NCBI RefSeq assembly: GCF_013315695.1
Contig: NZ_CP054353.1
DNA length: 64,000 nucleotides
Strand: one strand, 5' to 3'
Source of the DNA: Escherichia coli
GTDB lineage: Bacteria; Pseudomonadota; Gammaproteobacteria; Enterobacterales; Enterobacteriaceae
Every line of letters begins with the position of its first letter. Positions within the stretch are counted from its first letter, which is position 1. Shown one piece after another: positions 59,901 to 62,900 of this stretch. Made by a program: the position numbers.

Positions 59901-62900
59901 CAATCTTTACTGAGATGGAAGAAGGCAAAATCCGTGGCCGTATGGTGATTGATTTCCGCCGCTAAGAGGCCTTTGCTGCGACTGCTATGTTCGGGTCGCA
60001 GCCTGTTTTGCGAGACGCTTTCCGCAATTTCACTCTTCTTCTTTTCCTCCCCCATCTTTCCCCTCACAATTCGCGAAAACGTAGCGAAATTTGTTGCGCT
60101 GCACGGAACAATAGTGATAGTGTTCCTTTTGAGGGAACAAGGATGAAGAGATGATAATGAATTTCAGACACAAGGGATTGCGTGACTTGTTTCTTCTCGG
60201 CAAAACCTCCGGCGTTATACCGACGCAAGTCAAACGATTACGCCACCGACTCGCTGTGATTGATGCAGCAAGCTGTCTTGCTGATATCGATATGCCCGGT
60301 TACCGATTACACCCGTTAAGCGGCGATCGCGATGGAATTTGGGCGATATCTGTCTCGGGCAACTGGCGGATAACGTTCGAGTTCGTCAATGGCGATGCAT
60401 ACATACTGGATTACGAGGACTATCACTGATGAAAATGGCCAATCATCCCCGCCCGGGGGACATTATTCAGGAATCACTGGACGAACTTAATGTCAGCCTG
60501 CGCGAGTTTGCCAGAGCTATGGAAATTGCGCCCTCAACGGCAAGCCGATTGCTGACCGGAAAAGCAGCTTTGACACCAGAAATGGCGATTAAACTTTCCG
60601 TGGTGATCGGCAGTTCGCCGCAAATGTGGCTGAATCTGCAAAACGCCTGGAGCCTGGCAGAGGCTGAAAAAACGGTGGATGTGTCGCGACTGCGCCGTCT
60701 GGTTACGCAATAAAAAAATGGCACCTTATAAAGACATTGCCCGATGCGCTACGCCTATCAGGCCTACACGTTCACTGCAATCTATTGGATTTGAACGGTT
60801 TGTAGGCCGGATAAGGCGTTCACGCCGCATCCGGCATGAACAAAGTGCACGTTGTCTACAATAAAAAATGGCGCCTTTTACAGCGCCATTTTCAGCTTAA
60901 AGTTCAAAAGAGATTATATCCCTTCTTCACTCTCTTTTTTCGCTTCTGCCTTCTCGATTTCACGATACCAGCGCGGATGGTGTTTCTTCGCCCAGCGACG
61001 GCTCACCTTCCCTTCGATCATCCCTTTAATCGATCCTTTCACCCAGAATGCCATATACATATGGATCAGGATGGCGTGGATCAGGATGATACCCGCAGCC
61101 GCATGGATCAGCAGGCTATAACGGACAACCTGTATCGGGAAGTACTGCGCAAAGTACGGACGCCAGATAATCACCCCGGTCACCAGCAGCACGAAAATCA
61201 TGCTCATGATCGACCAGAACATCATCTTCTGCCCGGCGTTGTACTTACCAACATCCGCCACTTTGTGCTCATTGCCTTTTAATACTTCGACAATGTTCAA
61301 CAGCCACGGAATATCTTTCTTATCCGGGATGTTGTGATGCACAAAACGCACAAACATAAACATCAGCGCGACGAAAATCGCAATGCCGAAGAACGGGTGC
61401 AAAATGCGTCCCATCTGCGGCGTACCGAAGGTTTGCGTCAGCCATTGCAGCGTCGGGAAGAAGAACGAAATCCCGGACAGCGCCACCAGGAAGAAGCAAA
61501 TCACCACGGTCCAGTGACAGGCGCGATCAATAAACTTGGTGCGCACAATCATTTTCGACTTACTCATGATGCTCCTCCTCGTCATCGTCCACTTCCTTAT
61601 TCGGGCCAATACCGATGTAGTGGAAAATCAACCCGGCAAAAGTGGCGATAAAGCCAGCCGCTGCCAGCGGTTTCAACGCGCCTTTCCACAAGTTCACCGA
61701 TGTGTCGATCTTCGGATCTTTCGGCAGACCGTGATACAGCTCCGGCTGATCGGCGTGATGCAACACGTACATGACGTGCGTACCACCGACCCCTTCCGGG
61801 TTGTAGACGCCAGCATGTTCGTAACCACGCGCTTTCAGTTTCGCCACGCGCTGTTCCGCCAGCTCCAGCATCTCCTTCTTGGTGCCGAAGTGGATAGCCC
61901 CGGTCGGACAGGTTTTCACACAAGCTGGTTCCTGGCCGACGCTGACGCGATCGACGCAGAGCGTGCATTTATATACCCGGTTATCCTCTTTGTTGAGGCG
62001 CGGAATATTAAACGGACACCCGGCAATGCAGTAACCACAGCCGATGCAGTTTTCCGACTGGAAATCGACAATCCCGTTAGCGTACTGAATGATTGCACCA
62101 GCAGACGGGCACGCCTTCAGGCAGCCCGGATCTTCACAGTGCATACAGCCGTCTTTACGGATCAGCCACTCCAGCTTGCCGTTCTGTTCGGTTTCGCTAA
62201 AGCGCATCACAGTCCAGGACTTGGCGCTCAGATCGGCGGGGTTATCGTAAACCCCGACGCAGTGCCCCACTTCATCACGGATGTCGTTCCACTCCGAACA
62301 CGCCACCTGACAGGCTTTACAGCCGATACAGGTGGAAACGTCGATAAGTTTTGCGACTTCTGCTTTGTAATCACGCACCTGCGAAGGCGGCGTGATGGAG
62401 TTAGTTGCGGACCTTTTGATAATGTCCTGCGTTTCCATAGCCATCTGTTCGCCCCCTTACGCCTTCTCGATGTTGACTAAGAACGCTTTATATTCCGGCG
62501 TTTGCGAGTTTGCATCACCGACATTCGGCGTCAGAGTGTTAGCGATATAACCTTTACGCGCGACACCCTCAAAGCCCCAGTGGATCGGAATACCCACCGT
62601 TTCAACCTGCTGACCGTTTACATTCAGCGGTTTCAGACGGCGCGTTACCACCGCCACCGCGCGGATAAAGCCACGCTTGCTTGAGACAGTGACACGATCG
62701 CCATTATTAATGCCTTTCGCCGCCGCCAGCGTTTCGCTGATTTCCACAAACTGTTCCGGCTGAGCAATTGCGTTGAGCAACGCGTGCTTGGTCCATGTGT
62801 GGAAGTGCTCGGTCAGACGATAGGTCGTACCCACATACGGGAACTGCTCTTTTTTACCCATCCGCAGCGCGTCTTGTTCATACAGACGAACGACCGGGTT

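Follow-up and report, generated by a model that had tools for sequence, protein, structure and literature searches.

The HigB-like toxin gene and its HigA-type partner yddM at the adhP-fdnI site of Escherichia coli

The window analysed here is a stretch of 64,000 nucleotides from Escherichia coli (assembly GCF_013315695.1, contig NZ_CP054353.1). In a preliminary description of this DNA, a small ORF directly in front of the helix-turn-helix gene yddM was read as a HigB-like toxin that might have escaped annotation. The locus thus raises the question of whether the two genes make up a chromosomal type II toxin-antitoxin module, and, if so, of what family the module is and why the toxin is not seen in the K-12 annotation.

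Structure and annotation of the locus

The features of the region, all of which are located on the plus strand, are as follows.

60105-60139, plus strand: candidate HigA/YddM operator, with two overlapping inverted repeats formed from three half-sites
60139-60143, plus strand: Shine-Dalgarno sequence AAGGA of higB, 7 nt 5' of the ATG, by direct reading of the sequence
60151-60429, plus strand: higB, intact 92-aa ORF with an ATG start, from the ORF list and the raw sequence
60415-60419, plus strand: Shine-Dalgarno sequence GAGGA of yddM, within the 3' end of higB and 9 nt 5' of the ATG, by direct reading
60429-60713, plus strand: yddM (higA), 94-aa XRE-type HTH antitoxin and putative autorepressor, from TIGR02607, PDB identity and RefSeq

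The intact 92-aa ORF is present with the C-terminus that had been described for it. Its start had been given as 60140, a position that falls on the Shine-Dalgarno sequence, and the actual start is at 60151. The stop codon TGA (60427-60429) shares its A with the ATG of the 94-aa XRE-HTH ORF (60429-60431), so the ATGA overlap of the two genes was read correctly. This overlap, together with the location of the yddM ribosome-binding site within the end of higB, suggests that translation of the two genes is coupled.

The region is 100% identical to that of E. coli MS 21-1, in which both genes are annotated by RefSeq/PGAP. The CDS of WP_000605676.1, named 'type II toxin-antitoxin system RelE/ParE family toxin', coincides with the higB coordinates, and yddM carries the label HigA family addiction module antitoxin. 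In the AIEC strain NRG857c, the locus was described as TA20 'parE-2/higA-2' and reported as common to CFT073, with HS and K-12 having the antitoxin only (Bustamante & Vidal 2020, PMC7232551); it is higB/higA in TADB 3.0 entry TA027334 (quoted in PMC11205521). Positions 1,526,229-1,526,791 of NRG857c were checked here and represent the same adhP-toxin-yddM-fdnI locus. The YddM protein of TA20 is the same (WP_000781370.1), and its toxin allele, WP_000605675.1, is one residue off the window toxin (S41C). The module is therefore already known, being found in the RefSeq annotation, in TADB and in at least one comparative paper, with the structure of its antitoxin in the PDB. Accordingly, the suggestion that the toxin was unannotated does not hold, while the suggestion that it was uncharacterised stands to the extent that literature searches found no toxicity or biochemical work on the toxin of the adhP-yddM locus. 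The K-12 frame in which the toxin had been placed also has to be given up: the window is not K-12, and in MG1655 the gap between adhP and yddM is 145 bp and without a toxin ORF, therefore no unannotated toxin exists there. In K-12, the toxin gene has been lost and the antitoxin kept.

Families of the toxin and the antitoxin

A Pfam search of the 92-aa protein returned PF05015 (HigB-like_toxin) over the whole length (i-Evalue 1.5e-17; query 4-92 on model 2-91 of 91) as the sole match, with no match to ParE_toxin, and NCBIfam gave nothing but a sub-threshold match to RelE_StbE. Among all PDB sequences (phmmer), the top matches are the HigB chains of Proteus vulgaris (plasmid Rts1), in the free, HigA-bound and 70S ribosome-bound states (4YPB and 4ZSN for the last). 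The alignment to 4MCT_B (E 8.4e-32) places residues 1-92 on 2-93 without gaps, with 52 of the 92 residues identical (56.5%). Furthermore, 1995 homologues of the toxin were found at E <= 1e-10, and PF05015 is present in all of those among the matches listed. On this evidence, the ORF belongs to the Rts1-type HigB toxins of the RelE superfamily by sequence, and a RelE-like RNase fold is inferred from the identity to P. vulgaris HigB.

The conservation of individual residues points in the same direction. His54, Asn71, Arg73, Asp90, Tyr91 and His92 of P. vulgaris HigB are identical and at the same positions in the window toxin, and Arg48 and Lys57 are replaced by Met and Ser. In P. vulgaris HigB, toxicity requires every one of His54, Asp90, Tyr91 and His92 (Schureck et al., PMC5027501), whereas single alanine mutants of Arg48 or Lys57 are still toxic (PMC5027501). 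The protein ends in Asp90-Tyr91-His92, as does P. vulgaris HigB, with no extension. The toxin would thus be expected to cleave mRNA as a ribosome-dependent endonuclease, at A-rich codons if it acts as its family does.

Two other activities could be proposed for a protein with such labels. Salmonella SehA, which binds and inhibits RNase III and does not cut mRNA on the ribosome, demonstrates that a 'HigB-like' annotation is no proof of RNase activity (PMC12817084). SehA, however, is only 25% identical to P. vulgaris HigB, has no active site, and depends on an additional helix at its C-terminus, alpha-4, in which the critical residues lie (PMC12817084), whereas the window toxin has more than twice that identity, the same length as P. 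vulgaris HigB and the catalytic Asp-Tyr-His end. A non-catalytic toxin of the SehA kind is therefore highly improbable. A gyrase poison of the ParE type is more improbable still. The only pointers to it are the CDD label cl21503, ParE_toxin superfamily (quoted in PMC7232551), and the 'RelE/ParE' in the RefSeq name, but the single Pfam family found is a HigB one, the closest proteins of known structure are without exception HigB endoribonucleases, whose catalytic residues the window toxin retains, and the partner is HigA rather than ParD. The toxin of TA20, called ParE in PMC7232551, is likewise a HigB by the present evidence from Pfam, the PDB and the catalytic residues.

The 94-aa protein was compared with the curated equivalog profile TIGR02607 (antidote_HigA) of NCBIfam and scored 93.7 bits against a cut-off of 47.7, with residues 3-81 aligned to profile positions 1-80 of 81. 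Its C-terminal residues are RRLVTQ. Over all 94 residues it is 100% identical to the 'antitoxin HigA' of PDB entries 2ICP and 2ICT, a structure of the antitoxin alone, for which a later structural paper names E. coli CFT073 as the source (PMC6987408); the 'HigA of E. coli CFT073' is thus the same protein as YddM. The next PDB matches are P. vulgaris HigA (E 1e-18), GraA and P. aeruginosa HigA. By its sequence, the protein is a HigA-type HTH antitoxin, and the reading of the pair as a toxin-first, higBA-type type II module, given in the preliminary description, agrees with both profiles and both sets of PDB matches. The Pfam and phmmer E-values of the toxin and the TIGR02607 score of YddM are well outside what chance would give.

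Among known systems, Rts1 HigB-HigA of P. vulgaris (complex 4MCT/4MCX), the best studied of the HigBA modules, is a very close relative. It also has the toxin first and a 92-aa toxin that aligns without gaps. Rts1 HigA, with its N-terminal XRE HTH, shares 33 of 81 aligned residues with YddM (41%), and both modules have inverted repeats in the promoter region. The two differ in that the Rts1 module is plasmid-borne while the window module is chromosomal, vertically inherited and at a fixed site. YddM has 94 aa versus 104 aa in P. vulgaris HigA, and the putative operator of the window module, with its three GGAACA-type half-sites, is its own, unlike that of Rts1.

The HigB-HigA pair of K-12 (YgjN-YgjM, b3083/b3082) shares with the window module the name, the toxin-first order and the general class of ribosome-dependent mRNA interferases, to which the window toxin would belong. 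Nevertheless, K-12 HigB (YgjN) has no detectable similarity to the window toxin (BLASTP E = 16), and membership of the window toxin in the YgjN family was rejected since no real alignment exists. The ygjNM genes lie at fadH-rlmG, unlike the adhP-fdnI location of the window module, and the HTH of K-12 HigA (YgjM) is in the C-terminal part (PMC6987408). The distinction also bears on published work. The only ExPEC 'delta-higBA' mutant found in the literature, made in CFT073, competed without any defect in mouse UTI assays (Norton & Mulvey 2012). This mutant was considered as a knock-out of the window locus and rejected, as neither primer arm is found in the window at <=3 mismatches; one arm encodes CYIREVMTHKEYD and maps to K-12 higB/ygjN. 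The CFT073 delta-higBA mutant targets the unrelated ygjNM locus.

A role as a catalogued anti-phage system was also considered and is unsupported: PADLOC returned no match for the toxin and weak generic HTH matches for YddM only.

Conserved site, upstream repeats and proposed mode of action

Orthologues of the toxin are 97% identical in E. marmotae, 83% in Citrobacter rodentium and 78-87% in other Citrobacter. They occupy the same position and have the 94-aa HTH gene and then fdnIHG behind them. The gene order is maeA-adhP-higB-higA-fdnI in E. marmotae and maeA-higB-higA-(pyrophosphatase-like gene)-fdnI in C. rodentium. The GC content of the module (49-53%) is that of the window, and plasmid homologues of the toxin are all <60% identical, with the exception of three matches at >=90%. 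From the shared chromosomal site in E. marmotae and C. rodentium, the unremarkable GC content and the distance to plasmid homologues, the module was probably already present at the adhP-fdnI site in the ancestor of Escherichia and Citrobacter. A recent horizontal or plasmid-borne acquisition was rejected, since genuine plasmid homologues stay below 60% identity and the GC content is ordinary. The three closer matches sit in records of 252 kb to 4.9 Mb, very large ones that are filed as plasmids but may be chromosomal sequence.

The toxin is under purifying selection. Between the window and UTI89, the toxin gene has 7 synonymous changes and 1 non-synonymous change. Its dN/dS is approximately 0.05 for UTI89 and for E. 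marmotae when compared to C. rodentium, and approximately 0.04-0.14 in most comparisons; for the window toxin and C. rodentium, synonymous sites are saturated and no ratio is computable. The value of 1.17 between UTI89 and E. marmotae comes from five differences only. For YddM, comparisons of the window, UTI89, EC958, E. marmotae, K-12 and an O157:H7 strain gave 5-9 synonymous and 0 non-synonymous changes.

Upstream of higB, an inverted-repeat search found the half-sites GGAACA (60105-60110), TGTTCC (60121-60126) and GGAACA (60134-60139), so that the repeats lie directly 5' of the toxin ribosome-binding site. When the window is aligned with E. marmotae, C. rodentium and toxin-less K-12, the half-sites and the motif TTGTTGCG are invariant, while the neighbouring sequence has diverged. 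The P. vulgaris promoter is repressed approximately 200-fold by HigA dimers, which occupy two operators, each an inverted repeat, that cover its -35 and -10 elements (PMC12266136). By likeness to these Phig O1/O2 sites (PMC12266136), the GGAACA/TGTTCC repeats are the probable operator of YddM, and the higB promoter is probably in or around 60105-60139. Weak candidates for its elements can be seen by eye, with TTGTTG/TTGCGC near 60091-60099 as a -35 and GATAGT/TAGTGT in the spacer of the first repeat. A consensus scan for promoters and terminators found nothing convincing for sigma-70 in the putative operator region; its one promoter match, at chance rate, lies over the start codon, and it gave no terminator. 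An Rfam scan of 58500-62000 gave zero matches.

The locus is very probably a vertically inherited, chromosomal Rts1-type HigB-HigA type II operon between adhP and fdnI that would act in the following manner. A single autorepressed promoter would drive higB and then yddM/higA, with the ATGA overlap and the internal ribosome-binding site of yddM probably coupling their translation. HigB would most likely enter the ribosomal A site and cleave mRNA by means of His54, Asp90, Tyr91 and His92. The YddM dimer would most likely bind HigB and hold it inactive, and would most likely also repress the operon at the inverted repeats over the promoter. Upon loss or depletion of YddM, free HigB would bring translation to a stop. 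Toxicity, ribosome-dependent cleavage, neutralisation and autorepression are all expected here from homology to the systems in which they are known.

Toxin loss and the orphan antitoxin

Across 5426 complete E. coli genomes, 5412 match some of the region, in essence yddM, and 1330 have the toxin gene, so the toxin gene is absent from approximately 75% of the genomes. Moreover, 546 of the 1330 toxin-bearing genomes share one and the same 1-bp deletion (window G60248, codon 33), which truncates the toxin after approximately 36 residues and is annotated by PGAP as 'frameshifted' in the ST131 strain EC958. Therefore, only approximately 14% of the complete genomes can have an intact toxin. In JA0265, labelled as a spontaneous mutant, a 9-bp in-frame deletion removes Gln26-Lys28. 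The O157:H7 strain TR01, one of only two genomes in which the toxin gene is matched in part, carries another deletion, which leaves the last 47 nt of the gene. In the K-12-type allele, the ORF is gone and the upstream repeats are kept. The junction of this deletion is ambiguous, because two alignments differ by approximately 20 nt and the upstream spacer of K-12 has diverged; a microhomology of ATGAA at the junction is possible. With at least 4 different lesions (the K-12-type deletion, the ST131 frameshift, the TR01 deletion and the 9-bp deletion), the toxin has been lost several times, and this repeated loss indicates that it is dispensable and possibly costly. YddM, in turn, exists as an orphan with unchanged protein sequence in most E. 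coli, including K-12.

These losses allow for a decaying relic, in which the toxin would be weak or effectively silent at its native expression and the real function would be that of YddM as a stand-alone transcription factor. Besides the number of lesions, this is favoured by the complete identity of the YddM protein with or without the toxin, with silent changes alone in its gene. Earlier work on K-12 takes YddM for a regulator, with both ChIP-exo sites and effects of CRISPRi, and the main text of Rousset et al. does not name yddM as conditionally essential in B2/F strains. However, the ORF of the window is full length with every essential residue present, and substitutions in the toxin are overwhelmingly synonymous. 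Its maintenance since the split of Citrobacter and Escherichia is not what would be expected of a neutral relic, and a module in such decay is considered quite improbable. The functional HigB-HigA operon remains the preferred reading for the window.

A related proposal concerns the approximately three quarters of E. coli in which YddM is an orphan behind an intact putative operator. YddM may be kept there for a job of its own, although this is rather unlikely. Candidate jobs include that of an anti-addiction factor against the HigB toxins of incoming Rts1-type plasmids or phages, or that of a domesticated regulator. If true, the intact higB in the lineage of the window would represent the ancestral state of a module in the middle of its domestication.

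The same pattern has been seen elsewhere in the genome. The higB-1/ybaQ locus of phylogroups B2 and F, a separate locus and protein pair from higB/yddM, also consists of a core HigA-like regulator and a clade-restricted PF05015-type toxin upstream of it, and its toxin was lost in K-12 and most phylogroups with the antitoxin kept. In toxin-bearing strains, ybaQ is essential, and derepression of the toxin was shown experimentally (Rousset et al. preprint, 10.1101/2020.05.25.114553). The main text of that study flags ybaQ as an essential antitoxin in B2/F strains, and yddM is absent from it (10.1101/2020.05.25.114553). Nothing comparable turned up for yddM.

The retention of YddM also matters for experiments. 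Since K-12, like most laboratory strains, has an identical YddM behind the retained putative operator, a toxicity assay would be masked unless performed in a delta-yddM host.

As a member of the well-studied HigBA family, the module is an ordinary one, and its discovery value is small. With respect to naming, the E. coli protein truly related to the prototype Rts1 HigB is the window toxin, and not K-12 HigB (YgjN), and the published 'higBA' results in ExPEC concern ygjNM, the other locus. For the evolution of E. coli, the locus provides a clean natural series of toxin losses, from a whole-gene deletion to the frameshift of pandemic ST131 and an in-frame deletion, in which the antitoxin has stayed frozen, in parallel with ybaQ/higB-1.

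Deletion alleles and a frameshift in higB

The adhP-yddM spacer of K-12 MG1655 (locus L002, 2684-2828) was compared with window 59966-60428. The toxin ORF is wholly missing from the K-12 spacer, and the GGAACA/TGTTCC/GGAAC repeats, together with the TTGTTGCG motif, are retained ahead of yddM. The YddM proteins of K-12 and the window are 100% identical, with 9 synonymous differences between the two genes. The K-12 deletion junction is ambiguous when the two spacers are compared, and further upstream the K-12 sequence is unrelated to that of the window.

Three further forms of the higB region were found, with each locus numbered in its own coordinates:

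L009 (E. coli O157:H7 TR01), 601-747: third higB-region allele
L010 (JA0265), 501-770; window 60225-60233: 9-bp in-frame higB deletion
L008 (EC958), 501-778: higB frameshifted by a 1-bp deletion

The TR01 allele is rare; TR01 is among just two genomes whose match covers only a part of higB. In this allele the upstream spacer is B2-like, the promoter piece that follows resembles K-12 and is cut within the first repeat, and of higB the final 47 nt are left, 100% identical. This mixed make-up suggests that the allele arose by a separate deletion event or by recombination. In JA0265, which is labelled a 'spontaneous mutant' in its record, Gln26-Val27-Lys28 of the toxin are removed, giving an 89-aa product (WP_000605680.1). 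The protein database also holds an 89-aa toxin variant (P0003).

An identical 1-bp deletion at window 60248 (higB codon 33) is present in 546 complete E. coli genomes, shifting the reading frame so that a stop follows after about 36 codons. Carriers include the ST131 strains EC958, MNCRE44 and 'ST-131', and yddM is intact in the genomes with the frameshift. Judged from this shared mutation, the pandemic ST131 clone appears to have a dead copy of higB.

Names of higBA loci

In the E. coli literature 'higBA' usually denotes ygjNM, the K-12 type, which creates a naming trap; ygjNM is unrelated in sequence to the higB toxin of the window. The window's locus is named 'parE-2/higA-2' in PMC7232551 and higBA in TADB. 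A third pair, higB-1/ybaQ, occurs in B2 and F strains (10.1101/2020.05.25.114553), and its pattern of toxin loss is the same as that of higB/yddM.

Genes and spacers flanking the module

The flanking features are as follows:

Window 58925-59965: adhP, mechanical ORF of 346 aa from an upstream ATG
Window 60720-60840: REP/BIME-like palindromic units, e.g. GCCGGATAAGGCGTTCACGCCGCATCCGGCA, in the yddM-fdnI spacer
L003/L004 (Citrobacter rodentium), 3816-5349: higB-higA module and neighbours

Since adhP has 336 aa (1011 bp) in RefSeq, its translation probably begins further in, from the ATG at 58955. On the other side, the yddM-fdnI spacer is filled with the palindromic units and measures 406 bp in K-12 versus about 200 bp in the window. 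Because the matches of many genomes end at about window 60722 or fall into two pieces there, its repeat content is judged to differ among strains.

In C. rodentium the module comes immediately after maeA, without an intervening adhP, and a 200-aa pyrophosphatase-family gene separates higA from fdnI. It can be seen that the toxin-antitoxin pair is kept in place in this species while the neighbouring genes changed.
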